Part shown: in pieces, positions 146 to 62,700 of the stretch
How the letters are laid out: every line of letters starts with the position of its first letter
Numbering within the stretch: the stretch's first letter is position 1
Origin: Parcubacteria group bacterium
Lineage (GTDB): Bacteria > Patescibacteriota > Minisyncoccia > UBA10092
NCBI GenBank assembly: GCA_016186325.1
Contig: JACPLW010000010.1
Coordinates: 22,856 to 86,855, forward strand
Direction of reading: 5' to 3'
DNA: 64,000 nt
Program-made: the position numbers and the translations under genes
Notes under the pieces: model-generated
What the model saw: only the letters and a program-made list of their open reading frames with translations
Told to the model about the DNA's origin: nothing
Databases searched by the model: none

Positions 146-295
146 AAAAACAATAAAAATACTTTCCGAAGCTTATGAAAGCGTTTTAGTACGGTTTCAC
201 CCCGCAGTTGCGGGGTGAATAAAATACTTTCATCGGACAGCGAGTCCCGCGCTGGCGGGACGAGCGCGCGAGGAAAGTATTTTTATTGTTTTTTT
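146..295. repeat. MITE-like structured element, family A copy 1. It has ~24-bp terminal inverted repeats and internal GTCCCGC-N4-GCGGGAC hairpins
   Basis: Left arm aaaaacaataaaaatactttcc is the reverse complement of right arm ggaaagtatttttattgttttt. Internal hairpins ccccgcagttgcgggg and gtcccgcgctggcgggac. The core is near-identical to the element at 43735-43872. Confidence 0.6.
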
Positions 296-351
296 ATTTA
301 ATATTTAATTGTGGATAGTTTATTTTGCGGTTTTGTCATATAATTATCAGT

Positions 352-888
352 ATGCTTGATAAGGAATTTTTAAATGTTGATAAAGTAATTAACCAGTTTG
401 ATATTGAATCGAATGCGATTATTGCCGATTTTGGCGCGGGGCACGGATTTTTTACCATTGCTTTTGGAAAGATTGCGGCGCCTTCCGGCCAGGTTTTTGC
501 CGTAGACGTTTTACCACAGGCGCTTGAGGCTGTAAAATCAAAGGCACGGCTTGAGGGGCTTTTTAATATAAAAACAATACACGCCAATTTGGAGAAGCCG
601 AACGGTTCGACATTAGAAGGTGAAAGCTGTGATTTTGTTTTTATTGCCAATGTTTTGTTTCAGGTTCCGGATAAGCCAATGCTTTTAAATGAAGCGCGTC
701 GGATTTTAAAGCCTGACGGTCGGCTGGCTGTTATTGAATGGAAGCCGTTCACTTCAGTCGGGCCAAAGAAAGAATATCGCTTAACCGAAGAAGACTTAAG
801 GCAAATAATTTTGGCGGCCGGTTTTAATGAGATTAAAACAATTGATGCCGGCAGTCATCATTATGGGTTTATATTTAAAAAGATATAA
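352..888 (+). CDS. Class I SAM-dependent methyltransferase
   Basis: The ORF carries the glycine-rich SAM-binding motif DFGAGHGFF and a later VIEWKP region. The ATG at 352 is preferred over the TTG at 325. Confidence 0.55.
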   Translation: MLDKEFLNVDKVINQFDIESNAIIADFGAGHGFFTIAFGKIAAPSGQVFAVDVLPQALEAVKSKARLEGLFNIKTIHANLEKPNGSTLEGESCDFVFIANVLFQVPDKPMLLNEARRILKPDGRLAVIEWKPFTSVGPKKEYRLTEEDLRQIILAAGFNEIKTIDAGSHHYGFIFKKI

Positions 889-896
889 GCAATTTT

Positions 897-2216
897 ATGA
901 ATATAGGTAACTACCAAATAACCAGGGGCCAAATAGTGATTTTCGGTGCGGTTTTTATTATTGTCATCCTTCTTATTTTAGGGTTTATTGTCGGCTCAAA
1001 GCCGCCGGCACAGCAGGTAGTAAATCTGGAATTTTGGGGCCTATACGATGACGGCTATTCCATTTGGCAGCCGTTTTTTGATGCCTATCGCAGAGAAGGT
1101 AGTGCCAATGTTTTTATCAATTACACCAAAATGAATCCCGATACTTACGAACGTGATTTAATTGAGGCCCTGGCTAGCGGCAAGGCGCCCGATATTATAG
1201 CGTTTCATTCTTCCTGGCTTCCCAAGCATGGGAATAAGGTTTCTCCTGTTCCAGAGACTCTAATGACGCTAAGGCAGTTCCAAGAAACGTTTCCCGATGT
1301 TGCCGTTACGAACTTTATTTCTAAAAATCAGATTTATGCCATTCCGGTCTGGACCGACGTTTTAACAATGTTTTACAATAAAGATTTATTTAATACTGCG
1401 GTAATTGGCACGCCGCCCAAAACATGGGATGAGTTTATAAAAGTAATACAAAAACTTTCTGTAAAAGATAAATTCGGCAATTTTACAAAATCCGGAGCGG
1501 CACTCGGTACCGCGGATAATGTAAATAACGCCGCCGATATTTTAAGTTTGCTGATGCTTCAAATCGGCGCCAAGATGGTAAGCGACGATGGGCAAGGAGC
1601 GACTTTTGACCAGAGCGTTACGGTTAACGGTAATTTATTTCTTCCGGGAGAATCGGCGTTAAGATTTTATACCGATTTTGCTAATCCAAAATCCAGCGCC
1701 TACTCTTGGAATGACAAAATGCCGGATTCTTTTGAAGCTTTTATCACCGGGAAAACCGCCATTATTTTTGACTACGCGGTTAATATGCCGGAAATAAAAA
1801 AGAGGGCGCCGAATTTGCGCTTGGGCATAGCAGCAATGCCTCAGCCGGCCAATGCTTCAAGGGATGTTAATTACGCCAGCTACTGGGGCTATGCCGTGCC
1901 GCTGGCCTCAAAAAATTCTCAAGCCGCTTGGCAATTTCTCCTTTATTTGACCAGGAAAGATATAAATCAGTCATTTTCAAACGCAGTTCTGCGGCCGGCT
2001 TCAAGAAGAGATGTAATAAGCGAAGAACAAACATCCGCTGATTTGGGCATTTTTGCCGAAGAAATTCTTTCGGCAGTCAGCTGGTATCAAGTTGACCCAA
2101 TGGCAATTAAAAAAATCTTTAAAGATATGATAGATGCCGTTGTATTGAGCGGCGATAAGCCAGCCGATGCCTTAAGAGACGCGGCGAGCAAGGTAACGTT
2201 TTTGATGAGGAGGTAG
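897..2216 (+). CDS. Extracellular solute-binding protein (ABC transporter, family-1 SBP-like) with an N-terminal membrane anchor
   Basis: 439 aa with an N-terminal TM helix and overall similarity to MalE/UgpB-type binding proteins. The call rests on sequence feel, not a search. Confidence 0.45.
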   Translation: MNIGNYQITRGQIVIFGAVFIIVILLILGFIVGSKPPAQQVVNLEFWGLYDDGYSIWQPFFDAYRREGSANVFINYTKMNPDTYERDLIEALASGKAPDIIAFHSSWLPKHGNKVSPVPETLMTLRQFQETFPDVAVTNFISKNQIYAIPVWTDVLTMFYNKDLFNTAVIGTPPKTWDEFIKVIQKLSVKDKFGNFTKSGAALGTADNVNNAADILSLLMLQIGAKMVSDDGQGATFDQSVTVNGNLFLPGESALRFYTDFANPKSSAYSWNDKMPDSFEAFITGKTAIIFDYAVNMPEIKKRAPNLRLGIAAMPQPANASRDVNYASYWGYAVPLASKNSQAAWQFLLYLTRKDINQSFSNAVLRPASRRDVISEEQTSADLGIFAEEILSAVSWYQVDPMAIKKIFKDMIDAVVLSGDKPADALRDAASKVTFLMRR

Positions 2217-2253
2217 TGCAAATTTCTAATTTCTAATTTCTAAACAAATCCCA

Positions 2254-4946: not shown

Positions 4947-5014
4947 AATAACCCCGCAGCTCCGACGCATACTGGTCGGAGCCCCGACTACAACGTCGGG
5001 GCTGCGGGGTTATT
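4947..5014. repeat. Family-B double-hairpin palindromic element (CTCCGAC...GTCGGAG / CCCCGAC...GTCGGGG), intergenic copy
   Basis: aataaccccgcagc[tccgacgcatactggtcgga][gccccgactacaacgtcggggc]tgcggggttatt: two hairpins nested inside an outer stem, sitting between convergent genes. Confidence 0.6.
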
Positions 5015-5468
5015 CTTCATGGTGTTTTATTTCTATCTTTTTGGTTTTGGTTCTTTCTGATTTCGGGAGTTTTATAGTGAGTACGCCGTTTTTCAGAGTA
5101 GCAATTGATTTATCGGTTTGAACGTCAACCGGCAGAATTATTGAACGGGAAAACGGTCCCCAATAACATTCCTGATAAAAATAATCATCTTTGATTACAG
5201 ACTCCTCTATTTCCCGCCGACCGCGAACGGTCACCATATCATTAGTAATAGCAATGTCTAAATTTTCCGGTTTGACTCCGGCAATGGTGGACTTTATTAC
5301 AATATCGGCGGGCGTCTGATAAACATCAATAGAGAGCTGTCCCTCTGTTTCGCCCGATTCCCAATTATTGATTTTTTCCATCTCTTCTTTTTCTTTCATA
5401 ATTTTCTTTTCGTTTTGGCCGTTATCAGAGGCATTTATCGGACCGATTAATTTTTCTAAAAAAGACAT
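5010..5468 (-). CDS. Hsp20/alpha-crystallin family small heat shock protein
   Basis: The C-terminal GVLTIKLPK and the overall alpha-crystallin domain pattern identify it. Confidence 0.75.
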   Translation of the reverse strand: MSFLEKLIGPINASDNGQNEKKIMKEKEEMEKINNWESGETEGQLSIDVYQTPADIVIKSTIAGVKPENLDIAITNDMVTVRGRREIEESVIKDDYFYQECYWGPFSRSIILPVDVQTDKSIATLKNGVLTIKLPKSERTKTKKIEIKHHEE

Positions 5469-5645
5469 AATGCTAAAAGTTTCTCTCGCTTTGCGAGATC
5501 TGGCGAAGCCAGATAAATCCTAATTCCTAATTTCTAAACTAATTATACTTTCTGTTCGGCCGCCGCGTCAACCCCGTTAGAAGTTTATTTTCAAAAACAT
5601 TAAATATTTTAATGTTTTATCAGTTTTAACTGAATCAACTCTATT

Positions 5646-6431: not shown

Positions 6432-8616
6432 TCATAATCGGTTTTCCCCGACGCTTTCGGTCGGGGCTCCGACCCCCGCTTTGCGGGGCGTCGGAGTTAT
6501 TCAATATTCCCCAAATTTCTTCGGTTAAAAAAGGAAGAAAGGGGTGGAGCAGTTTCAATAAATCTTCGTGGACTTTTATAAGGACTTCTTGAGTTTGCTG
6601 TCTTGCTTTTTCATCGGCAAGCTCCGACGCTTTGGTCGGAGCTCCGACTTCTTCAGAACGTCGGAGCTGTTTTTTTGCGGTTTCAATATAAATATCGGCG
6701 TATTCGTGCCAGAAAAAATCGTAAAGTTTATGAAGTGCCTGTCCAAACTCGTACTTTTCTATCCTGTTGCCGACTTCAACAATTGTTTTTTTGAGACCAC
6801 TTAAAATTTTCTTATCCGCTTCAGTTAAATTTTGATTTTTGCTTGCCCGCCGAAGCCTTGGCGTAGGCGGGATTTTTGAATTCACGTTTTGTTTTACAAA
6901 ACGCGTGGCGTTCCATATCTTATTACAGAATTTTTTGCCGGTTAACATCGCATCTTCATTAAACCGAATGTCCTGACTGCCGAGATTTTGGTACATCATA
7001 CCGAAGCGAGTAGCGTCAGCACCGTATTTTTCAATTAAATCAATCGGGTCAACACCGGTACCTCGAGATTTAGACATTATTTTACCTTCTTTATTAAGAA
7101 CCGTAGCGTGAATGTGTGTGGTGTTAAAAGGTGATTGGCCTGTAAATTCCAATCCTGAAAAAATCATTTTGGCAATCCAAATATCTCGAATATCTCTTGC
7201 TGAAGTAATAAAGTCGGTAGGATGGTATTTTTTAAGGTCGTTTGTTTTGTTGGGCCAGCCAAGTGTCGCAAAAGGCCAAAGCGCCGAAGAAAACCAAGTA
7301 TCCAAAACATCGGTTTCTCCCTCTAAAGGAATTTTGTGACCCCACCAAAGTTGGCGGGAAATATTCCAGTCCCTTTCATTTTTAAGGCGATTTAATAAAA
7401 CTTTCTCCCATTTTTGCGGGTGAATAATTGTTTTTTTCTTTTTTATTGCGTCAATTGCCAGTTTGGCAAGCTTTTCCATTTTCAAAAACCATTGCTCGGA
7501 CGGCAGAGGTTCAATGACCGAGTTACAGCGGTCGCAGCGGGCGATATTGTGCTCGTAATCTTCTATTTTTTCAATTAACCCGATGGCTTCAAGGTCTTTA
7601 ACTATTTGTTCGCGCGCTTCAGTCACTTTCATTCCCTTATAGCGCAAGCCGGCGTTCTCGTTCATTCGGCCGTGTTCATCAATTATAGTGATTGAAGGTA
7701 AGTTATGACGTTCCGCGATTTCAAAATCCGTTATATCGTGCGCCGGCGTAACCTTAATAATGCCGGTTCCAAATTCCGGGTCCACAGATTTATCTGCTAT
7801 TACCTTTATTTTAATTTTTTTGGTTTTAGCCGGCTGATTATTCGGCAAATCGTTGTCTATAGATTCTATCTCCAAATCTTTTCCCCAGTATTTTTTGTAA
7901 CGTTTGTCATTAGGGTGTACCGCTAAGGCAGTGTCGCCAAGTTTAGTTTCCGGTCTAGTCGTGGCGAGGGTGAGCGGTCCGTATTTGATAAAATAAAGTT
8001 TTGCGTGCTCCGGTATGTAGTCAACCTCTAGATCAGAGATTCCCGTGGCGCAGCGGACGCACCAATTAATAACGCGCTTGCCGCGATAAATCCAACCTTT
8101 TTTATAATAATGATTAAATGCTTCCACGACGGCTTTGGAGTAATCAGAATCCATAGTATATCTGGTTCGTGACCAGTCCGAGGATATGCCCAGCAATTTT
8201 AATTGGTCAAAAATAATATTGCCGTATTTTTCTTTCCACTCTTTAACTTTCTCAACAAATTTTTCCTGGCCTAGATCTTGGCGGCGCAAACCTTCTTTGC
8301 GAAGTTCTTTTTCAACAACATTTTGGGCAGAAATGCCGGCGTGGTCTATGCCCGGAAGCCAGAGCGTTTTAAAGCCCTTCATTCTTTTCATTCTCACCAA
8401 AATATCAACCTCGGTATTTTCCAAGACGTGGCCCATATGGAGCGAGCCGGTGATATTTGGCGGCGCCATCATCACCGAAAATTTCTTTTTTCTTTTTACG
8501 GCTTGCCCCGAAGAAGGCGGCGGCAGTTTATCAGGATTAAAAAAGCCCGATTCTTCCCAGAGCCGGTAAATTTTATCTTCAACTTCTTTTGGGTTATACG
8601 GAGAATCAAAGTTCAT
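6412..8616 (-). CDS. valS: Valyl-tRNA synthetase (class I). The C-terminal domain carries two in-frame palindromic-element insertions
   Basis: PPNITGSLHMGH (HIGH motif) and KIMSKS (KMSKS motif). Its coding sequence contains two family-B palindromic repeat copies (features at 6446-6496 and 6620-6667). Confidence 0.8.
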   Translation of the reverse strand: MNFDSPYNPKEVEDKIYRLWEESGFFNPDKLPPPSSGQAVKRKKKFSVMMAPPNITGSLHMGHVLENTEVDILVRMKRMKGFKTLWLPGIDHAGISAQNVVEKELRKEGLRRQDLGQEKFVEKVKEWKEKYGNIIFDQLKLLGISSDWSRTRYTMDSDYSKAVVEAFNHYYKKGWIYRGKRVINWCVRCATGISDLEVDYIPEHAKLYFIKYGPLTLATTRPETKLGDTALAVHPNDKRYKKYWGKDLEIESIDNDLPNNQPAKTKKIKIKVIADKSVDPEFGTGIIKVTPAHDITDFEIAERHNLPSITIIDEHGRMNENAGLRYKGMKVTEAREQIVKDLEAIGLIEKIEDYEHNIARCDRCNSVIEPLPSEQWFLKMEKLAKLAIDAIKKKKTIIHPQKWEKVLLNRLKNERDWNISRQLWWGHKIPLEGETDVLDTWFSSALWPFATLGWPNKTNDLKKYHPTDFITSARDIRDIWIAKMIFSGLEFTGQSPFNTTHIHATVLNKEGKIMSKSRGTGVDPIDLIEKYGADATRFGMMYQNLGSQDIRFNEDAMLTGKKFCNKIWNATRFVKQNVNSKIPPTPRLRRASKNQNLTEADKKILSGLKKTIVEVGNRIEKYEFGQALHKLYDFFWHEYADIYIETAKKQLRRSEEVGAPTKASELADEKARQQTQEVLIKVHEDLLKLLHPFLPFLTEEIWGILNNSDAPQSGGRSPDRKRRGKPIMIEEWPK
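6446..6496. repeat. Family-B palindromic element inserted in-frame within the valS 3' end
   Basis: ccccgacgctttcggtcggggctccgacccccgctttgcggggcgtcggag. It translates (minus strand) to ...APQSGGRSPDRKRRG.... Confidence 0.6.
6620..6667. repeat. Family-B palindromic element inserted in-frame within valS
   Basis: gctccgacgctttggtcggagctccgacttcttcagaacgtcggagc. It is nearly identical to the intergenic copy at 22435-22484 and translates to ...RRSEEVGAPTKASELAD.... Confidence 0.65.
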
Positions 8617-9788
8617 AGCCTAAGGTTAGCATCTGCGACTATTTTTTTCCATGAATCTTTTTGCGGTTTTTTCTTGAGATAATTAAAATAGCCGGCGGCG
8701 GCAATCATCGCGGCATTGTCGGTGGTGTAAGACAAATCGGGAACAAGCAACGGGATTTTATAGGATGCGATTTTTTTCGCCATTTCTTCGCGCAGTTTTC
8801 TATTGGCGGACACGCCGCCGGCAATCATTACTGATTTTGGATTGAAATTTTTCACCGCTTTAAGCGTTTTAGCGATTAAAACATCAACTATCGCATTCTG
8901 AACTTCAAAAGCCAAAGTCGGTCTGATTTTAGAAATCGGATATTTTTTTATCAAATCATTATACAGATACAAAACTGCGGTTTTAAGTCCTGAAAAAGAA
9001 AAGTTATGATTATCAGAATTTATCATCGGCCGAGGGAGTTTAATTTCGAATTTAGAATTTCGAATTTCGAATTTGTTTGTGATTTGTGATTTGTGATTTG
9101 TGATTTTTGATGCTTCGGTGGCGATAGCGGGACCGCCGGGGTATCCGAGGCCTAGAAGACGCGCCGTTTTATCAAAAGCCTCTCCGGCCGCGTCGTCAAG
9201 TGTTTGGCCTACAATTTTATATTGGCCGTAGTTTCTCATTAAAACCAGCTCAGTGTGCCCGCCGGAAACGATAAGAATTAACGCGGGAAATTCAATTTTT
9301 TTTGAGATTTGTCTCCCTTCGGTAGATCCCCCGTAGGGGGAAGATTTGTCTCCCTTCGGGAGATCCCCCGTAGGGGGAAGATTTGAGATTTTTCCAATTG
9401 GCGGCAGCCAATTGGAATAGATGTGTCCCTCGATATGATTGACGCCTATAATAGGTTTTTGCCACCTATAAGCTGGGGCCCTAGCGAAATTGACTCCGAT
9501 TAAAAGCGACGGCACTAGTCCCGGTCCCCGCGTTACCGCAATCAGGTCAACTTTCTCACTATTGATGTCGGACATCGATAATGCGGCGTTGATTGTGGGG
9601 CCGATTTTTTCAAGATGGGCACGACTAGCGAGATTGGGAACGACTCCCCCGAATTTCTTGTGAATCGCCACCTGGGAATAGGAAACATTTGATAAAACTG
9701 AAAAATAAGGGTTATCAAATCCTCCCTTTGCTTCTATAATCGCCGCGGCAGTGTCGTCGCATGAAGTTTCAATCCCTAGGATATGCAT
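8613..9788 (-). CDS. tsaD: tRNA N6-adenosine threonylcarbamoyltransferase TsaD (Kae1/Gcp family), with low-complexity repeat insertions
   Basis: N-terminal MHILGIETSCDDTAAAI, HIEGH and a C-terminal Gcp-like region. At 391 aa it is longer than typical because of tandem-repeat-encoded inserts. Confidence 0.75.
   Translation of the reverse strand: MHILGIETSCDDTAAAIIEAKGGFDNPYFSVLSNVSYSQVAIHKKFGGVVPNLASRAHLEKIGPTINAALSMSDINSEKVDLIAVTRGPGLVPSLLIGVNFARAPAYRWQKPIIGVNHIEGHIYSNWLPPIGKISNLPPTGDLPKGDKSSPYGGSTEGRQISKKIEFPALILIVSGGHTELVLMRNYGQYKIVGQTLDDAAGEAFDKTARLLGLGYPGGPAIATEASKITNHKSQITNKFEIRNSKFEIKLPRPMINSDNHNFSFSGLKTAVLYLYNDLIKKYPISKIRPTLAFEVQNAIVDVLIAKTLKAVKNFNPKSVMIAGGVSANRKLREEMAKKIASYKIPLLVPDLSYTTDNAAMIAAAGYFNYLKKKPQKDSWKKIVADANLRL
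9044..9112. repeat. Tandem heptanucleotide repeats (aatttcg/gaatttc x about 4, then tgatttg x 4) inside the tsaD coding region
   Basis: Read directly. They encode ...ITNHKSQITNHKSQITNKFEIRNSKFEIK.... Confidence 0.7.
9304..9377. repeat. Family-C element: two tandem 37-bp copies of gatttgtctcccttcgg(g/t)agatcccccgtagggggaa, each a double hairpin, in-frame in tsaD
   Basis: tctcccttcgggaga and tcccccgtaggggga hairpins, encoding ...GDKSSPYGGSTEGRQ.... A third copy lies in mltG at 49512-49548. Confidence 0.7.
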
Positions 9789-22365: not shown

Positions 22366-22434
22366 AAAAGTTTGGGCGGGTCAATTTCACCACGAGGACA
22401 AAAACCTGTTGCCGCAGGTGACCGTTCTGTCCAA

Positions 22435-22484
22435 CTCCGACGCTTCTAGGTCGGAGCTCCGACTTTTTACTTAGAACGTCGGAG
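22435..22484. repeat. Family-B palindromic element, intergenic copy
   Basis: ctccgacgcttctaggtcggag ctccgactttttacttagaacgtcggag. It interrupts a degenerate tRNA-like 5' fragment (GCGCCCGTAGCTCAAC...). Confidence 0.6.
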
Positions 22485-26627: not shown

Positions 26628-28756
26628 AAAAAAAAATATTTCCAATAGAAAAAGTCCGCAATATCGGTATTATTGCTCATATTGACGCCGGAAAAACCAC
26701 CGTTTCCGAGCGTATTTTGTTTTACACCGGCATTTCTCACAAAATCGGCGAGGTTCATGAAGGGGCGGCTGTTATGGATTGGATGGAACAGGAAAGAGAA
26801 CGGGGCATTACTATTACGGCAGCGGCCACAACGACTTTTTGGACCCCGACTCTTTTATTGAAAGAACCCACCTCCGCCGAAGCTGCGGCGGGCAAGGAAA
26901 ACGAACACCGCATTAACATTATTGATACTCCCGGGCACATTGATTTTACCGTTGAAGTTCAGCGTTCACTTAGGGTTTTGGATGGCGCCGTTGTAGTGTT
27001 TGACGGCGTTGCCGGCGTTGAACCGCAGTCAGAAACCGTTTGGCGCCAAGCCGATAAATACGGCGTGCCAAGAATTTGCCTTATAAATAAATTGGACCGG
27101 ACGGGCGCGTCTTTTGAAAAAAGTTTGGCATCAATTCACGAGCGTCTGACATTGAATGCCGTTCCGGTAAATTTGCCGAACGGACTTGAAGAAAAATTTG
27201 AGGGCGTCATTGATCTTATTGAAGAGAAGGCCGTTCGTTTTTTGGGCGAACATGGCGAAAAAGTTGAGTATTTTGATATTCCGGAGAGTCTTAAAAAACA
27301 AGCGGTTGAAGCCAGAAAAAGCTTGATAGAAAAAACCGTCGAAACCGACGACGAATTGATGGCAAAATATTTGGAAGGACAGGCGATTTCTAAAGACGAA
27401 ATTAGAAAAGCAATAAGAAAGGCGGTCATTGGGAATAAAATTATTCCGGTTTTTTGCGGCTCGGCCTTAAAAAATAAAGGCATTCAGCTTGTGCTTGACG
27501 GCGTTGTAGAGTATTTGCCCAGTCCAGCAGATCTTCCCCCCACTAAAGGCATTGAACCAAAAACCGGCGCTGAAATTTTACGCGAACCGAAAAATGATGA
27601 ACCGTTTACGGCGCTGGCTTTTAAAATTGCAAGCGATCCTTACGTCGGCTCGCTTACTTATTTTCGCGTTTACTCGGGGAAGCTTTCAAAAGGTTCTTAT
27701 GTTTTAAACTCATCCAAGGATTACAAAGAGCGAGTCAGCCGGATTTTGCTGATGCATGCTAACGATCGGGAGGAAGTTGAGGAAATAAAAGCCGGTGAAA
27801 TCGGCGCCATTGTCGGATTAAAAAACACCACCACAGGCGATACGCTTTGCGACGAAGAACATCCGATTATTTTGGAAAAAATTGTTTTCCCGGAACCGGT
27901 CATTTCCCAAAAGATAGAACCAAAAACTAAAGCCGACCAGGAAAGAATGGGTCTGGCTATGAAACGTTTGTCTGAAGAAGATCCGACTTTCAGGATTAAG
28001 TCAGATTCCGAAACCGGTGAAACCATAATTTCGGGCATGGGTGAACTTCATCTGGAAATTATTGTTGATCGGATGAAAAGAGAATTTAAAGTTGAGGCCA
28101 ACATTGGTCGGCCGCAAGTTGCTTACAAAGAGACAGTCAGAAAAGCGGCCGAAGCTGAAGGTAAATATATTCGGCAATCGGGCGGCCGCGGCCAATACGG
28201 CCATGTTTGGTTGAGAGTTGAGCCTGCCGACCGGGGGAGCGGTTTTGAATTTATTGATGAAATCAAAGGCGGCGTTATTCCGCAGGAATTCATTCCGGCG
28301 GTTGAAAAAGGCATACGCGAAGCCATGGAAAAGGGCGTTAAAGGCGGATTTCCGATGGTTGACATGAAGGCGGCTCTTTATGACGGTTCTTATCACGATG
28401 TTGACTCTTCTGAAGCAGCTTTTAAAATTGCCGCCTCAATTGCTTTTCAGGAAGCCGCAAGACGCGCTACTGTAGTATTTCTTGAGCCGATTATGAAAGT
28501 TGAAGTGGTAACTCCGGAACAGTTTTTTGGCGATGTCACCGGCGACCTAAATTCCAAGCGTGGTAAAATTGAACAAATGTCGGAAAGAGCAATGCTAAAA
28601 GTAATTGATGCCAAGGTGCCGCTTTCTGAAATGTTCGGCTACGCCACCAAGCTTCGCTCAATGAGCCAAGGTCGCGCGAGTTATACTATGGAGTTTGATC
28701 ACTATGAAGAAGTTCCAAATAATGTCGCGGAATTGATTGTTGCGGGTAAAAAGTAG
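26621..28756 (+). CDS. fusA: Elongation factor G
   Basis: [14 protein letters not shown]-domain, DTPGHIDF and overall EF-G layout. 711 aa. Confidence 0.9.
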
Positions 28757-36485: not shown

Positions 36486-37187
36486 ATGGGAAACAAAATT
36501 CATCCATTAAATTTTAGGCTCGGAATAATCCAAAACTGGCAGTCAAGATGGTTAAATAAAAAATATCTTCGTTACTTTCTTGAAGAAGATCTTAGAATTC
36601 GCGAATCTTTATCAAAACAGTATAACCGATTGGGCCTGGGGATTGTAGAAATAGAAAGATCCGGCGACAACATCTCGGTAATTTTAAATACGGCTAAACC
36701 CGGTATTATTATCGGAAGAGGCGGAACCGGCCTGACAGATTTGAAGAAGAAGCTGGAAGCAATAGTAAAAAAACTACGCGATAAAAAACACTACGGCACG
36801 GGAAAATGGGATCTAAAGCTTTTGGTCAATGAAATAAAAAAACCGGAAAGCGAAGCAAAAGTTGTCGCGCAGAATATAGCCAATGATCTTGAAAGGCGGA
36901 TGCCTTTCCGCCGGGTGATTAAAAGCGCCTTAGAAAAGATGATGGCGCAAAAAGACGTTATGGGAGCAAAAATTCTTTTAAATGGCCGGCTTGATGGAAA
37001 TGAAATGGCGCGCCGTGAATGGCTGGCTAAAGGGAAGGTTCCTCTTCAAACATTAAGGGCAAACATTGACTATGCTTTTGACGAGGCTCTTACCGTTTAC
37101 GGGAAAATCGGCGTTAAAGTCTGGGTTTACAAAGGCGAAGTGTTTTCCACCGAAAGCGGATCCGCCCGTGGCGGAGAAAGACACTAA
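36486..37187 (+). CDS. rpsC: 30S ribosomal protein S3
   Basis: GNKIHPLNFRLGIIQNWQSRW, KH domain. Confidence 0.9.
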   Translation: MGNKIHPLNFRLGIIQNWQSRWLNKKYLRYFLEEDLRIRESLSKQYNRLGLGIVEIERSGDNISVILNTAKPGIIIGRGGTGLTDLKKKLEAIVKKLRDKKHYGTGKWDLKLLVNEIKKPESEAKVVAQNIANDLERRMPFRRVIKSALEKMMAQKDVMGAKILLNGRLDGNEMARREWLAKGKVPLQTLRANIDYAFDEALTVYGKIGVKVWVYKGEVFSTESGSARGGERH

Positions 37188-40630: not shown

Positions 40631-41134
40631 ATGGCAGAGAAACAAAAAAATTATAGAACTCGAGACAAAACCACCGGTCGTGCAGGTTTTAAGAGAGAAA
40701 AATCCGAATTTGAACAAAAGGTTATTGATATTAGAAGAGTTACTCGTGTTGTGGCCGGAGGCAAACGGTTTCGCTTTCGGGCAACCGTAGTTTTGGGTGA
40801 TCACAAGGGGCGGGTAGGCGTCGGTGTTGATAAAGGGACCGACACTTCCGAATCTATTGAGAAAGCGGCGAGATCGGCCAAGAAAAATTTAATTACGGTT
40901 TCAATTAAAAATGGCACCATTTCCCATGAAACAATAGGAAGGTTTTCAAGCGCCGTCGTGCTTTTAAAACCGGCCAAAGCCGGAAGAGGTATTATTGCCG
41001 GCGGGCCGGTTAGAATTATCGCGAGTCTTTCGGGGATTAGTAGTATTTCATCAAAGATTCTTGGAACGACTACCAATAAGCTGAATAATGCCAGGGCTAC
41101 AATAGAGGCGTTAAGGAAACTAAAATCAAGATAA
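40631..41134 (+). CDS. rpsE: 30S ribosomal protein S5
   Basis: RVTRVVAGGKRFRFRATVVLGD. Confidence 0.9.
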   Translation: MAEKQKNYRTRDKTTGRAGFKREKSEFEQKVIDIRRVTRVVAGGKRFRFRATVVLGDHKGRVGVGVDKGTDTSESIEKAARSAKKNLITVSIKNGTISHETIGRFSSAVVLLKPAKAGRGIIAGGPVRIIASLSGISSISSKILGTTTNKLNNARATIEALRKLKSR

Positions 41135-41226
41135 ATTTCTAATTTCTAATTTTTAATAAATTTCTAATGACTTAATTTTTAAACATTAAAACATTAAATC
41201 ATTTAATAAAAATTGAAAATTAGAAA

Positions 41227-41682
41227 TTGAAAATTATTATTATGCAACTACACAATATAAAACCAAAAAACAAATTAAAAAAACCCAGAAGAATAGCCAG
41301 AGGAGGCAAAAGAGGCGGTTATTCGGGTCGCGGCATTAAGGGCCAGAAATCCAGAGCCGGTGCCGGAATTAGGCCGGCTATTCGCGATGTAATGATGAGG
41401 TTTCCAAAACAGCGCGGCCGCGCTAAGCACTCCTTTAAGAGTATATTTCTAAAACCGGTCGTTTTAAATCTATTTGACATTGATAAAAAATTTAAAGACG
41501 GAGAAATTGTCAACCCGGTCAGTCTTGTTGGTAAAAAATTAGTTTATAAAATAAGCGGTCGGTTTCCAAAGATTAAGATTTTGGGTACAGGTGAAATTTC
41601 TAAAAGATTAAATTTTCAAGAAGTTTTATTGTCGTCATCGGCGCGTGATAAAGTTAAGAAAGCGGGAGGCACCATAAAATGA
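41227..41682 (+). CDS. rplO: 50S ribosomal protein L15 (follows S5 directly; no L30 gene)
   Basis: L15-like sequence. The S5-L15 intergenic region holds only AT-rich heptamer repeats. Confidence 0.8.
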   Translation: MKIIIMQLHNIKPKNKLKKPRRIARGGKRGGYSGRGIKGQKSRAGAGIRPAIRDVMMRFPKQRGRAKHSFKSIFLKPVVLNLFDIDKKFKDGEIVNPVSLVGKKLVYKISGRFPKIKILGTGEISKRLNFQEVLLSSSARDKVKKAGGTIK

Positions 41683-45147: not shown

Positions 45148-45585
45148 ATGAAGATTTTAGCTATTGATTACGGGAAAAAATGGATTGGGCTGGCGATTTC
45201 TGACGATGGGCGCCGGCTGGCTTTTGCTTATAAAACCTTGGAAAATAATTCCAAAACTTTTTCTGTTTTAAATGAAATAATAAAAAAAGAAGAAATTTAT
45301 AAAATAGTTATTGGCTTGCCTTTGAATAAAGAGATGAAACCGACGCAACAAACAACTGAAACGGAAAACTGGGCGCAAGAACTTATTAAAAAAGTTGCAA
45401 CTCCGACGCCTTTGGGTCGGAGCCCCGACCGGAACTCCGACGGTACCGTCGGAGAAAGCGTCGGGGTTGATTTTGAAAATGAAATTTTTACAAGCAAGGC
45501 GGCGGATAAACTCGGAGTAAAAAACCAGCACGCCGCCGCCGCCGCAATTTTTCTTCAGGATTATTTGGATAGAAATAACAAATAA
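45148..45585 (+). CDS. ruvX: Holliday-junction-resolvase-like protein RuvX/YqgF, with an in-frame family-B palindromic insertion
   Basis: MKILAIDYGKKWIGLAISD N-terminal RNase-H-like motif. The internal segment ...PTPLGRSPDRNSDGTVGESVGV... is encoded by the repeat at 45401-45466. Confidence 0.7.
   Translation: MKILAIDYGKKWIGLAISDDGRRLAFAYKTLENNSKTFSVLNEIIKKEEIYKIVIGLPLNKEMKPTQQTTETENWAQELIKKVATPTPLGRSPDRNSDGTVGESVGVDFENEIFTSKAADKLGVKNQHAAAAAIFLQDYLDRNNK
45401..45466. repeat. Family-B palindromic element (nested hairpins) inserted in-frame in ruvX
   Basis: ctccgacgcctttgggtcggag ccccgacc ggaa ctccgacggtaccgtcggag aaag cgtcgggg. Confidence 0.6.
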
Positions 45586-49116: not shown

Positions 49117-50128
49117 AATTATTTTTTATACCGGTTTAGTAATAGCGGCATTTTTTTTGATTTTTGTTTTTATTTTTTGGTGGCAGATAAGAACGCCTCT
49201 TGACTCTTCCGGGGAAATTTTAATTTTTAAGGTTGAAAAAGGGGATTCGGCCAAAACTGTCGCTGTAAATCTTAAAAAATCCGAGCTTATCAAAAGTTCT
49301 TTTGTCTTTCGTCTTTATGTTTTTTTATCGCTTGGCCAGTATAGTTTAAAACCCGGCGAATATGAGATTTCTCCTAAGATGCCGATTCGGGATATTGCCG
49401 ATACCATGGTTTTGGGAGGTGTTAATGAGGTTTTGCTGACAATTCCCGAAGGTTTCAGTTTAAAACAAATTGAAGATCGGCTTGTCGCGGCAAAACTTGC
49501 CAAGCCTGGCGAGATTGTCTCCCTTCGGGAGATCCCCCATAGGGGGATAAATTCCCAATTTACCGAAAACATTCCCCCAATACTTTCCGGTAAACCAAAA
49601 TATGCTTCTTTAGAAGGATATTTATTTCCCGATACTTACCGTTTTTTCAAGGACGCTTCGTTGTCGGATATTGTAAGTAAAATGGTAGCAAATTTGGATT
49701 CTAAAATTACTCCGAACTTAAAAACTGCCATGGCTGATTCCGGCCGCAACACTTACGAAATTCTTACAGTAGCTTCTCTTATTGAAAAAGAAGTAAAAAG
49801 CGATGCCGACATGGAAGTTGTTTCCGGAATTTTATGGAAGAGGCTTAGAGCCGGCATTCCGCTTCAAGTCGATGCTACCTTAATTTATATTACTGGCCGG
49901 CGCGATATATACGAATCTGACAAAAAGATTAATTCTCCGTATAATACCTACTTTTATCGGGGATTGCCTAAGGGGCCGATTGCCAGCCCCGGGTTAAGCG
50001 CGATTAAAGCCGCCGTTTTTCCAAAAACCAGCCCTTATCTGTATTATCTCTCGGCTAAAGACGGTAAAACAATTTTTTCAATAACGCTCGACGAGCATAA
50101 TCGCAACAAGGCGATTTACTTGAAATAA
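49109..50128 (+). CDS. mltG: Endolytic murein transglycosylase MltG/YceG-like, carrying an in-frame family-C element
   Basis: N-terminal TM and YceG-like domain. The segment GEIVSLREIPHRGINS is encoded by the family-C repeat at 49512-49548. Confidence 0.7.
   Translation: MGRIIFYTGLVIAAFFLIFVFIFWWQIRTPLDSSGEILIFKVEKGDSAKTVAVNLKKSELIKSSFVFRLYVFLSLGQYSLKPGEYEISPKMPIRDIADTMVLGGVNEVLLTIPEGFSLKQIEDRLVAAKLAKPGEIVSLREIPHRGINSQFTENIPPILSGKPKYASLEGYLFPDTYRFFKDASLSDIVSKMVANLDSKITPNLKTAMADSGRNTYEILTVASLIEKEVKSDADMEVVSGILWKRLRAGIPLQVDATLIYITGRRDIYESDKKINSPYNTYFYRGLPKGPIASPGLSAIKAAVFPKTSPYLYYLSAKDGKTIFSITLDEHNRNKAIYLK
49512..49548. repeat. Family-C double-hairpin element (third copy)
   Basis: gattgtctcccttcgggagatcccccatagggggata. 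Confidence 0.65.
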
Positions 50129-53828: not shown

Positions 53829-55303
53829 ATTTAAAAGAACTTACCATAAAACAAACGCATGAACTTCTGCAAAATCAAGAAGCAAGTTCGGTTGAATTGA
53901 CGAAAGAATTTCTTAAAAATATTAAGGAAAAAGATGGCGATATTCATGCCTTTTTATCATTAACAGAAGAAACAGCTTTAGAAACAGCTAAGAAGGTTGA
54001 CGATAGAATTTCAAAAGGAGAACCGATTGAAATGCTCGCCGGAATTCCGGCGGCGATAAAAGATAATATTTGCATTCGAGGCGGAAAAACTACCGCCGCT
54101 TCGAAAATTCTTGAAAATTATATCGCGCCTTATGATGCGACCGTTATTAAAAAACTGAAAGAAGAAGAGGCGGTATTTATTGGTAAAACAAACTTAGATG
54201 AATTTGCCATGGGTTCTTCAACCGAAAATTCCGGATTCGGACCGACAAAAAACCCGGTTGATACAGACAGAGTTCCCGGAGGTTCTTCCGGCGGTTCGGT
54301 GGCGGCGGTTAAGGCCGGCTTTTCTGTTTACGCCTTGGGTTCTGATACCGGCGGCTCCATTCGCCAGCCGGCCAGTTTTTGCGGCGTCGTCGGTTTCAAG
54401 CCGACTTACGGCGCCGTTTCTCGGCACGGTCTTATCGCTTTGGCCTCCTCGCTTGACCAGATTGGCCCGATTACTAAAAATGTTGAAGATGCCGCGATTG
54501 TTTTTGAAACGATACGCGGCGGCGATGAACTTGATTCAACCAGTTCGCCTAATGATTGGCAGGATTTTAATAATTCAATTCCGGATATTGAAGAACTGAA
54601 AATCGGGGTGCCGCGCGAATATTTTACTCACGGTTTAGATAAAGAAATCGAGAAAAATATCAGGGGTGTTATTTCTAAATTAGAAAAAGAAGGCGCTAAA
54701 ATAGAAGAAATATCTTTGCCTTACAGCGATTTCGCGTTGGCAGCCTATTATATTATTATGCCGGCCGAAGCTTCGGCGAATCTAGCGAGATACGACGGAA
54801 TGAAATACGGACTTTCCACTATCCAAATACCAAATACTAAATACCAGATACAAAATTTGTCCGATGTTTATCTAGATACAAGAGGAAAAGGTTTTGGTGC
54901 CGAAGTAAGAAGAAGAATCATGCTTGGAACATATATTTTATCTCATGGTTATTACGACGCTTATTACAAAAGAGCTCAAAAAGTGAGGCGGCTTATTAAA
55001 AACGAATTTGACCATGTTTTTAATCCGTCGGCCGACGGAGTTGATGTTATTTTAACGCCAACCTCGCCGACAACGGCTTTTAAATTCGGGGAAAAAACTC
55101 AAGACCCATTATCTATGTATTTGGCGGATATTTATACCGTTTCGGTTAATTTGGCGGGCGTTCCGGCAATTTCGTTGCCTTCGGGCGAAGTAAACGGCCT
55201 TCCTGTAGGATTACAGCTTATCGGCAAAAATTTTGAAGATGTAAAATTGCTTAGAATCGCAAAACTTATTGAAACAATTATTAACGAAAAATCTCATGTC
55301 TGA
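53825..55303 (+). CDS. gatA: Glu-tRNA(Gln) amidotransferase subunit A
   Basis: Amidase signature GGSSGGS. 492 aa. Confidence 0.9.
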   Translation: MNLKELTIKQTHELLQNQEASSVELTKEFLKNIKEKDGDIHAFLSLTEETALETAKKVDDRISKGEPIEMLAGIPAAIKDNICIRGGKTTAASKILENYIAPYDATVIKKLKEEEAVFIGKTNLDEFAMGSSTENSGFGPTKNPVDTDRVPGGSSGGSVAAVKAGFSVYALGSDTGGSIRQPASFCGVVGFKPTYGAVSRHGLIALASSLDQIGPITKNVEDAAIVFETIRGGDELDSTSSPNDWQDFNNSIPDIEELKIGVPREYFTHGLDKEIEKNIRGVISKLEKEGAKIEEISLPYSDFALAAYYIIMPAEASANLARYDGMKYGLSTIQIPNTKYQIQNLSDVYLDTRGKGFGAEVRRRIMLGTYILSHGYYDAYYKRAQKVRRLIKNEFDHVFNPSADGVDVILTPTSPTTAFKFGEKTQDPLSMYLADIYTVSVNLAGVPAISLPSGEVNGLPVGLQLIGKNFEDVKLLRIAKLIETIINEKSHV

Positions 55304-61949: not shown

Positions 61950-61961
61950 AAAATAGCATTA

Positions 61962-61982
61962 CTTGGTGACGCCGTCACCAAG
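61962..61982. repeat. REP-like perfect palindrome cttggtgacgccgtcaccaag (copy 1, 3' flank of the RAYT gene)
   Basis: 21-nt palindrome. Further copies at 62179-62199, 62446-62466 and 62666-62686. Confidence 0.7.
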
Positions 61983-62001
61983 TGGGTACATCTGACAATC
62001 A

Positions 62002-62700
62002 TTAGCTCTCCACTAAAAGATGTTCCATATCTTTTCTTTCGAGCATTATCTTTAAGGCATCTTCCGCGAAATCTTTATATTCCGCGATGGTTTTAAATTG
62101 TGAAATGATAATTTCTTTACCGCAAAGTTCTCTTCCATTTTTATCTTTTTTCTTCTTCATATACTCCTCCCAACTCGACTTGGAGACGCCGTCACCAAGT
62201 CGATGGACACGATTATTAAGATTCACATATGCGCTTACGTTCAGAAGATATTCGTTGGAGTCAACATGAACTGCTTTAAATGGACCTTGGAATAAAGAAC
62301 CGGAACGCTGACATTTTACATTGAAATATCTAGCATACCCAAGACATAATCTATGCATAAATTTTTCTATTCCTTTATCGGCGATTTGTCTCATTAAGAA
62401 GTGGTAATGATTTGGATTGAGGCAATAGCATACAAATTCCACTAACTTGGTGACGCCGTCACCAAGTTGAGATTCGCGCTTCCTAAATGAATTTTCAAAT
62501 ATACTTCCTATCGGTTCAACGGTATTGAACTCCTCCATACTTTGCAAGAATCTGGCATAATCTCGTGCGTCCATGAAAATTTGGCGTTTATCCACGCCTC
62601 GGCCGAAAATATGATAATACTCATCATTTACTAGTAATACTTTTCTCATACATCTTATTATACCACTTGGTGACGCCGTCACCAAGTATTTTTTCACCAT
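62002..62700 (-). CDS. REP-associated tyrosine transposase (RAYT; IS200-like Y1 HuH transposase) that carries three copies of its REP palindrome in-frame
   Basis: HuH motif NPNHYHFLM and a catalytic-Tyr region YVNLNNRVH (YxxxNP-like). The segments KYLVTASPSG, QLGDGVTKLV and RLGDGVSKSS are encoded by the palindrome copies. Confidence 0.6.
   Translation of the reverse strand: MVKKYLVTASPSGIIRCMRKVLLVNDEYYHIFGRGVDKRQIFMDARDYARFLQSMEEFNTVEPIGSIFENSFRKRESQLGDGVTKLVEFVCYCLNPNHYHFLMRQIADKGIEKFMHRLCLGYARYFNVKCQRSGSLFQGPFKAVHVDSNEYLLNVSAYVNLNNRVHRLGDGVSKSSWEEYMKKKKDKNGRELCGKEIIISQFKTIAEYKDFAEDALKIMLERKDMEHLLVES

Follow-up and report, generated by a model that had tools for sequence, protein, structure and literature searches.

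How does the same short palindromic sequence come to lie in frame inside two housekeeping genes of one Parcubacteria group bacterium, twice in tandem in tsaD and once in mltG? We analysed a stretch of 64,000 nucleotides of this genome (contig JACPLW010000010.1, positions 22,856 to 86,855 of the forward strand; hereafter the window) and found that the repeated sequence, here called the double hairpin (DH), is a 30-bp core composed of two hairpins, each with a 6-bp stem and a 3-nt loop. In the answer that we consider reasonably probable, the DH is a minimal mobile DNA palindrome that is read through in permissive protein loops, and a small GIY-YIG nuclease encoded beside tRNA-Cys genes is its putative mobiliser. 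The copies in the window and their host genes are as follows.

9312..9341, plus strand: DH copy 1, in tsaD, TCTCCC-TTC-GGTAGA followed by TCCCCC-GTA-GGGGGA, with one stem mismatch (G>T at 9323)
9349..9378, plus strand: DH copy 2, in tsaD, with perfect stems
49518..49547, plus strand: DH copy 3, in mltG, with the second loop ATA
8613..9788, minus strand: host gene tsaD, 391 aa, PF00814
49109..50128, plus strand: host gene mltG, 339 aa, PF02618

The 30-nt core TCTCCC-TTC-GGGAGA/TCCCCC-NTA-GGGGGA matched the window three times against 0 expected, each time inside a long open reading frame (ORF), which confirmed the tandem pair in tsaD and the single copy in mltG described in the initial annotation. 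That annotation had placed the pair at 9304-9377, the right site but about 2 nt off, and had described a unit of 37 bp. Its 37-mer was found at 9306-9342 (1 mismatch) and 9343-9379 (exact) and in none of 100 shuffles, and Tandem Repeats Finder reported 2.2 copies of period 37 at 9305-9385. However, the mltG copy has just the 30-nt core in common with the tsaD copies, so that the true unit is 30 bp and the extra 7 nt (AGATTTG) are a spacer heptamer, absent from the mltG copy. As single-stranded DNA, the core was predicted to fold into two hairpins at -9.9 kcal/mol. The 391-aa TsaD ORF shows 100% identity to TsaD of a Parcubacteria metagenome-assembled genome (MAG) at NCBI. On the minus strand, copy 2 encodes PPTGDLPKGD and copy 1 encodes SSPYGGSTEGR, with a K between them; the two are read in different frames because the 7-nt spacer separates them. 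The peptide GDKSSPYGGSTEGRQ given earlier for tsaD is correct as part of this stretch. In mltG, the copy is read as VSLREIPHRGI, and the proposed check for stop codons showed a stop in one of the six frames of the unit and none in the other five.

Orthologues with empty sites allowed the insertions to be reconstructed. In the TsaD protein alignment, the orthologue P0008 (71% identity) has GKISNL-KF-QISKK where the window has GKISNL-PPTGDLPKGDKSSPYGGSTEGR-QISKK, and the whole segment is absent from the orthologues P0003, P0013, and P0034. In the DNA alignment, the coding strand of P0008 tsaD reads AAATCT/CAAATTT/CAAATCT (slashes mark points of insertion here and below), and at each slash the window contains a single 30-bp core, with nothing further added. 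The closest MltG homologues are nearly all 329 aa long, compared to 339 aa in the window, and the DNA alignment with P0122 showed the 30-bp core inserted at the slash of GAGATTG/TAAATT. No target-site duplication was found at the three reconstructed sites (two in tsaD and one in mltG; junction ambiguity of at most 1 nt), and all three copies of the window sit after TTG. These alignments indicate that the tsaD and mltG copies are exact 30-bp block insertions, which supports the earlier proposal of a distinct family inserting into housekeeping genes with the ORF preserved. The reading frame is kept because 30 bp are 10 codons and the target is not duplicated. The AGATTTG flanks of the tsaD cores had suggested a 7-bp target-site duplication; this was ruled out, as P0008 has the heptamer array without the cores. 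The array in the window is laid out as follows.

9305..9392, plus strand: heptamer array hosting both tsaD cores, in the order AGATTTG, core, AGATTTG, core, AGATTTG AGATTTT

The equivalent array of P0008 reads CAAATCT CAAATTT CAAATCT on the coding strand; because it is free of cores, the heptamer array predates them. In the protein, the TsaD insert lies in the loop after the HIEGH motif, which is variable in length among orthologues. An AlphaFold 2 model of TsaD (shallow alignment; mean predicted local distance difference test, pLDDT, 61) gave pLDDT values of ~30 at residues 117-163 and 231-261, between confident strands. The model and the alignment together indicate that the DH is tolerated in protein loops of variable length. 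Other inserts were seen in the same proteins. Ten-residue inserts of orthologues read SAIGGSASGG in TsaD and SAQGGSASGG and RPEADPPLAD in MltG, the last occupying the exact site used in the window, and a long GC-rich insert (SGLRARSGHGVPRSGTSEGESL...) lies in the same TsaD loop of P0007, P0010, and P0039. These inserts, compared at the protein level only, probably belong to sister hairpin families, with a fitting size in the case of the 10-residue ones.

The DH is not restricted to the window. In a scan of GTDB for the loop-degenerate pattern TCTCCCNNNGGGAGATCCCCCNNNGGGGGA, with each species represented by a single genome, we found the core in 85 stretches, mostly titled Patescibacteria or candidate phyla radiation (CPR), including Saccharibacteria, Kuenen-, Nealson-, Jorgensen-, Azam-, Berkel-, Magasanik-, Staskawicz-, Yanofsky-, Nomura-, and Portnoybacteria; about 12 core-bearing records are titled uncultured Gammaproteobacteria and 1 Erysipelotrichaceae (titles as given, unchecked). 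With one mismatch allowed, the set contained 94 copies, 44 of which lie inside long ORFs, in both orientations, while others were found in intergenic DNA and in tRNA pseudo-fragments. Genuine host ORFs use five of the six frames of the element; the sixth phase appeared only in a stop-to-stop artefact in the GIY-YIG region of locus L011. After in-silico removal of the DH, no genuine ORF was found to be broken only by a stop within it (of the two hits, one was an antisense shadow ORF and the other the stop-to-stop artefact). In the commonest phase, which begins at a codon boundary, the product is SPxGGSPxGR or SPxGRSPxGG, and we infer that the element is translated within host ORFs into Ser/Pro/Gly-rich decapeptides such as SPYGGSPEGR. 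The hosts include aminoacyl-tRNA synthetases (aaRS) of the Leu/Ile/Val type (class I; 8 loci), UvrB (one gene carrying two copies), UvrC (twice), RecG, a Mur ligase, PCMT, cysteine desulfurase, and glycosyltransferases. The same two loops are also hit in at least two other TsaD genes, the HxEGH loop in L045 and the loop before LPRPM in L057. The initial annotation had left it to be checked whether the unit occurs elsewhere and whether it is conserved as DNA or as protein; the 85 stretches settle the former, and both orientations, five frames, and non-coding and tRNA-fragment contexts demonstrate conservation at the DNA level rather than the protein level.

The flanking sequence is unrelated from locus to locus, and the bases closest to the element follow a pattern. 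In 90 non-redundant copies, positions -3 to -1 of the left flank are T in 76, T in 80, and G in 66 copies, and the right flank continues with C (41), A (65), A (55), A (40), T (40), and T (52). The aligned copies thus define a roughly palindromic target consensus close to ATTTG/CAAAT, in short TTG/(C)AA. The loops are also constrained. Loop 1 is T-N-C in 82 of the 90 copies and loop 2 is G-N-A in 79, the order T-N-C then G-N-A being found in either orientation, which gives the element the form 5'-TC-N4-TNC-N4'-GA/TC-N4-GNA-N4'-GA-3', where the slash marks the boundary between the hairpins. Because the hairpins are self-reverse-complementary and the loop polarity is fixed, the element and its TTG...CAA flanks have dyad symmetry about a central GA/TC.

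When the flanks of each copy were joined, a lag-7 self-match at 70% or more of the positions was found in 15.6% of copies and at 0.1% of random positions. The usual layout consists of two locus-specific heptamers on each side of the core (for example GAAATTG, TAGCTGG, AATTTTG, and AGATTTG), and heptamer repeats are a favoured landing site of the DH in many CPR loci. A period-7 detector found five arrays in the window and none in shuffles; the array at 41209-41235 came from Tandem Repeats Finder.

2219-2245, 9042-9111, 41134-41158, 41209-41235, 54823-54846: 7-bp tandem arrays, with the units AATTTCT, AATTTCG, TTTGTGA, AAAATTG, and CCAAATA
9042..9111, plus strand: second heptamer hot spot in tsaD, about five AATTTCG and then about five TTTGTGA, hairpin-free

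The two in-frame arrays at 9042-9111 form a second variable TsaD loop, and the equivalent loop of L057, the one before LPRPM, bears a DH as judged from its peptide context. A Logan contig (L170; about window 243-2250, with window-identical proteins) ends near the palindromic repeat at 214-294 and at the array at 2219-2245, and both repeats appear to fragment assemblies. The read sets SRR12113430 and SRR12113422 gave contigs whose proteins are identical to those encoded at the two ends of the window.

Which gene could move such an element? All ORFs within 1.5 kb of the 94 copies were clustered in an unbiased search, and the results showed that the sole recurrent non-host neighbour family is GIY-YIG (PF01541), present at 13 of the 85 loci. 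The protein, encoded at loci other than the window, has 80-86 aa, consists of the catalytic domain only, and reaches 48-67 bits for PF01541 compared to a cut-off of 22.6. At these loci the core lies within truncated tRNA fragments at TG/CAAA, and an intact tRNA-Cys(GCA) adjoins; the TG/CAAA sites used in the pseudo-tRNA-Cys are in the anticodon, T, and D loops. The DH as a tRNA intron, suggested by its place in the anticodon and T loops, was ruled out because the interrupted copies are truncated pseudo-fragments beside an intact tRNA.

We then used an independent sample, consisting of metagenome contigs picked by GIY-YIG protein similarity alone (5 close sequences), which avoids ascertainment by the core. 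The close set comprised 49 loci with a GIY-YIG identity of at least 48%. In 48 of them, the tRNA-Cys starts ~230-260 nt past the start of the ORF, so that the gene stands just upstream of the tRNA. Of the 45 loci with enough upstream sequence, 37 have a DH before the ATG, at a distance of 30-135 nt and mostly of ~40-50 nt; it usually lies in a pseudo-tRNA-Cys 5' half, as GGTCTG-DH-CAAAAC. A second DH follows directly after the tRNA in 20 loci, and 43 of the 49 have at least one DH, compared to 0 of 31 more distant GIY-YIG homologues. The full layout was seen in L110 and L099: an outer tRNA-Cys split between positions 34 and 35 by a DH, the GIY-YIG gene, the intact tRNA-Cys, GGTCTG, and a DH. 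The two DHs of one GIY-YIG locus are usually identical. The DH architecture is physically linked, as an association, to the GIY-YIG/tRNA-Cys locus.

Several observations accompany these loci. Among the distant homologues (L136-L169; 39-46% identical), those with a called tRNA mostly lie ~90-190 nt downstream of a tRNA-Ser, a few are near other tRNAs, and several have no tRNA called, which suggests that the whole small GIY-YIG protein family is associated with tRNA genes. In L047 (1661-2278), two tandem GIY-YIG domains share one reading frame, and a DH in the anticodon loop of a pseudo-tRNA-Ser(GCT) is translated between them (...VPLRGISRRET...). The D-loop of a pseudo-tRNA-Cys in L007 (~5185-5199, minus strand) contains a single 15-nt hairpin, TCCGCC-CAA-GGCGGA, so half-elements also occur; similar single hairpins are found in the window at 37161 and 45668. 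In L019, L064, L080, and L081, the first three of which are titled Saccharibacteria MAG contigs, the DH stands within a larger context, GTCATTG[DH]CGA-N(12-18)-GCAATCTCA, that is repeated within one genome and may be a composite element carrying the DH.

The stems vary among loci and remain complementary (TCTCCC, TCCCCC, TGTCCC, TCTCGC, TCTGGC, TCCCGC, TCTGCC, TCCTGC, TCAGGC, and others). Covariation was evaluated in a MAFFT alignment, not fitted to structure, of the regions upstream of the GIY-YIG ORFs. The results showed standard pairs in 95.1% of cells, compared to 75.4% in shuffles, double-sided changes in 83 cells compared to 25, and a covariation score of 0.45 compared to 0.15; the observed values were reached in 0 of 500 shuffles, and controls with slid partners were 30-53% paired. 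These values indicate that the hairpin structure has been under selection. C-GNA-G triloops such as GCGAAGC are unusually stable DNA mini-hairpins, which favours structure at the DNA level over the RNA level. A sister family is present in the window as well.

5484..5513, plus strand: sister-family DH, TCTCGC-TTT-GCGAGA followed by TCTGGC-GAA-GCCAGA, intergenic, just upstream of an Hsp20-like ORF

This copy is followed by the heptamers TAAATCC TAATTCC TAATTTC, and its stem pair also flanks GIY-YIG genes in L098, L107, L113, and L121. Like the core itself, sister families with this architecture have dispersed copies, of which this is one.

From these results, a route for the DH can be proposed. 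The nuclease, possibly as a dimer on the symmetric site, would cut TG/CAA-like targets or bind the hairpins, and the DH would be copied in from a resident copy by homing-like, microhomology-guided repair, or be excised and pasted. The cassette would persist by replacing the tRNA-Cys that it disrupts, and copies scattered elsewhere, those in tsaD and mltG among them, would be the non-autonomous progeny of the nuclease-linked DH. With most frames free of stops and a length of 10 codons, an insertion in a permissive surface loop leaves the host ORF intact. More tentatively, the DH and the domain-only GIY-YIG protein could constitute an undescribed bacterial mobile system, a self-replacing tRNA-Cys cassette whose nuclease would destroy the resident tRNA-Cys while the cassette provides a new one, and whose DH is sent to TTG/CAA sites throughout CPR genomes and remodels loops of essential proteins by ten codons per insertion; this broader claim is possible, and we lean somewhat against it. 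If it is true, the 30-bp DH could rank among the smallest autonomous-partnered mobile DNAs reported.

Several points weigh against this mobile-palindrome reading. Both a GIY-YIG gene and a tRNA-Cys are absent within the 64-kb window, and a search past its ends for the GIY-YIG/tRNA-Cys locus of this contig gave only short Logan contigs. Mobilisation is deduced from association, and no cleavage, excision, or population polymorphism of filled and empty sites was observed. The link to GIY-YIG could be indirect, in that its locus makes neutral pseudo-tRNA fragments with TG/CAAA that collect DHs. In L025 (5644-5673) and L054 (75-104), a DH sits at CTTG/AAAA within a pseudo 5' half of tRNA-Ser(TGA), which it interrupts, with no GIY-YIG called nearby; in L025 the intact tRNA-Ser(TGA) is ~40 nt from the DH with no GIY-YIG gene between, so partial tRNA duplication accompanies the DH even without a nuclease gene. 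Several DH stem families are present within one GIY-YIG locus (L103 and L127), so any specificity between enzyme and hairpin must be loose. Translation through the element fits the avoidance of stops, a pattern based on small numbers. Finally, copies antisense to their host ORF outnumber sense copies by 32:13, and this orientation bias and the heptamer arrays stay outside the explanation; target availability was ruled out as the source of the bias, since sense strands contain TTG about as often as CAA.

The alternative that survives best, though we regard it as unlikely, keeps the DH mobile and assigns its movement to an unlinked HUH/Y1 transposase of the IS200/IS605 or RAYT type (REP-associated tyrosine transposase, REP being repetitive extragenic palindrome), or to host replication or repair acting on single-stranded DNA hairpins, the GIY-YIG link being a by-product of a shared preference for TG/CAAA in tRNA loops. 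IS200/IS605 peel-and-paste transposition is characterised by insertion 3' of a short fixed motif, lack of target duplication, and terminal hairpins, all of which are found in the DH; the copies in pseudo-tRNA-Ser with no GIY-YIG called nearby also agree with such a mover. However, the clustering of ORFs around the 94 copies returned GIY-YIG and host genes only, and neither TnpA(Y1) nor TnpB was found within 1.5 kb of any copy. IS200/IS605 insertions are strand-biased, whereas the DH showed no orientation bias relative to the replication strand as inferred from GC skew (41 vs 44). Moreover, DHs stand on both sides of GIY-YIG genes in many loci, as REPs do around RAYTs. A phage vector was also rejected, as the core had no match in viral contigs.

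An improbable alternative is that the DH is a selected functional signal, either an RNA hairpin (acting in processing, stability, or attenuation) or a site in DNA for a host protein (a GIY-YIG operator, an uptake signal, or a site for nucleoid structure or topology). The strong stem covariation agrees with this, and the fixed place of the DH, ~40-50 nt before the start codon of most GIY-YIG genes, would suit an operator or an element of the 5' untranslated region. A signal is hard to reconcile with copies that arise as block insertions, occur in both orientations relative to genes, and lie inside many unrelated ORFs. The Rfam search gave no family near threshold, just chance micro-RNA matches far below gathering scores; a U-tract is absent, so the DH is not a terminator; and C-G-closed G-N-A triloops are a DNA rather than an RNA mini-hairpin motif. 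The density of ~1 per 16 kb in the window is also far below that known for uptake sequences.

We consider it still less probable that the dispersed copies are scars comparable to solo long terminal repeats, left when a DH-GIY-YIG-tRNA-Cys-DH cassette inserts and recombination between its identical DHs drops the cargo. Cassettes do have a DH at each end, in direct order and usually identical (L101, L109, L110, and L111), and the expected product is a single DH between TG and CAA. However, a ~450-bp cassette with stops in essential single-copy genes (tsaD, aaRS, and uvrB) would be lethal before it resolved, and cassettes were seen at tRNA genes only. The readings of the DH as a conserved peptide motif or as an artefact of assembly or adapters have nothing more in their favour than the recurrence of peptides such as SPYGGSPEGR, and are refuted by the wide occurrence in assemblies from many independent studies and assemblers, by the five frames among genuine in-ORF copies together with non-coding DNA and tRNA fragments, and by the covarying stems.

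Unexplained extra segments are known in proteins and RNAs of CPR/Patescibacteria, and the DH accounts for part of them. It would be a 10-codon DNA parasite in permissive loops of essential enzymes (TsaD, MltG, aaRS, UvrB/C, and RecG), with the same loops hit repeatedly and independently in different lineages. An exact 30-bp unit, a defined target motif, and a single ~85-residue candidate enzyme offer a handle on its mobility. If the GIY-YIG link is causal, this nuclease family joins the short list of hairpin-repeat mobilisers, so far HUH/Y1, and an addiction-like tRNA-replacement cassette has been described. In practice, DH inserts break assemblies and inflate apparent protein divergence, and masking them is advised in CPR phylogenomics and structure prediction.

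The window contains further repeats. A palindromic family of the form CTCCGACGC-loop-GGTCGGAGCCCCGAC occurs at 6455-6510 (in valS), 4956-4988, 22431-22463, and 45397-45429, and is probably the one listed as family B in the initial annotation; in its valS copy, which is in-frame (NSDAPQSGGRSPDR), the loop holds a further hairpin of 15 nt, CCCCGC-AAA-GCGGGG. An inverted pair of a CCCGCC...GGCGGG palindrome lies at 6837-6881 (valS) and 26857-26901, the valS copy again being in-frame (IPPTPRLRRASK). Two G+C-rich repeat families of ~80 bp are built around GTCCCGC-NNN-GCGGGAC, one at 214-294/43793-43873 and the other at 42990-43071/45629-45710. The former pair stands between A+T-rich inverted repeats (140-167/272-299 and 43727-43752/43851-43876) and therefore looks like a MITE (miniature inverted-repeat transposable element). 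At 61961-62690, the 23-nt perfect palindrome ACTTGGTGACGCCGTCACCAAGT occurs four times at a spacing of 217-267 bp.

Among known systems, Rickettsia palindromic elements (RPE) are palindromes found in-frame in unrelated housekeeping genes of a reduced-genome bacterium, where they are apparently translated (PMC10969869). The DH is likewise a palindromic repeat in-frame within protein-coding genes. However, RPE measure ~100-150 bp, form Rickettsia-specific families, and have no known linked enzyme, whereas the DH has 30 bp and two hairpins whose stems covary, occurs across CPR, and is linked to GIY-YIG; size and taxon set the two apart. Double-hairpin elements (DHE) of Allomyces mitochondria are summarised as lacking a flanking duplication and as retained in transcripts (PMC2800124). 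They, the repetitive hairpin elements of sponge mitochondria, and the GC clusters of yeast mitochondria consist, like the DH, of two adjacent G+C-rich stem-loops, and are found between genes, within RNA genes, and at times within protein genes; the defining features of DHE (two adjacent G+C-rich stem-loops, dispersed, without flanking duplication) are shared as regards architecture only. Allomyces DHE are reportedly 26-79 bp long. These elements are organellar and eukaryotic, vary in length, and have neither a TTG target nor a reported constant partner gene, whereas the DH is found in bacterial chromosomes of CPR.

With REP/REPIN-RAYT systems, the DH shares short extrudable palindromes that multiply in the genome and a candidate enzyme gene flanked by copies of the repeat. 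REPs have a GTAG or CGTC head (PMC3733652), whereas the DH ends in TC...GA, with GTAG found only across the second loop in some copies. REPs are also extragenic, unlike the DH with its nearly half of copies in long ORFs, and the partner of a RAYT system is an HUH/Y1 transposase, in place of which the DH has GIY-YIG PF01541. Insertion 3' of a fixed motif without duplication recalls IS200/IS605 elements and palindrome-associated transposable elements (PATE), the bases of TTG at -3 to -1 being present in 66-80 of the 90 copies; however, the DH is without replication-strand bias and is far shorter than any described PATE. A classical MITE would have terminal inverted repeats plus a target-site duplication, and no duplication was seen at the three reconstructed sites.

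Free-standing GIY-YIG homing endonucleases (such as T4 Seg) and tRNA-restoring integrative elements resemble the cassette in having a GIY-YIG gene in a disrupted conserved gene with an intact replacement, here tRNA-Cys; a disrupted copy beside an intact tRNA-Cys is the pattern expected from homing with co-conversion. The CPR protein differs in being a catalytic domain without a DNA-binding domain, and the junctions differ in bearing a 30-bp DH that also spreads alone to hundreds of unrelated sites. A full-text search of open-access papers and bioRxiv found no published description of the DH or of a GIY-YIG/tRNA-Cys/DH locus in CPR. The DH is thus akin in behaviour to RPE, to REP/RAYT systems, and to the DHE of fungal mitochondria and is a member of none of them, and there is a substantial chance that the partnership of nuclease and hairpin represents a new type of mobile system.

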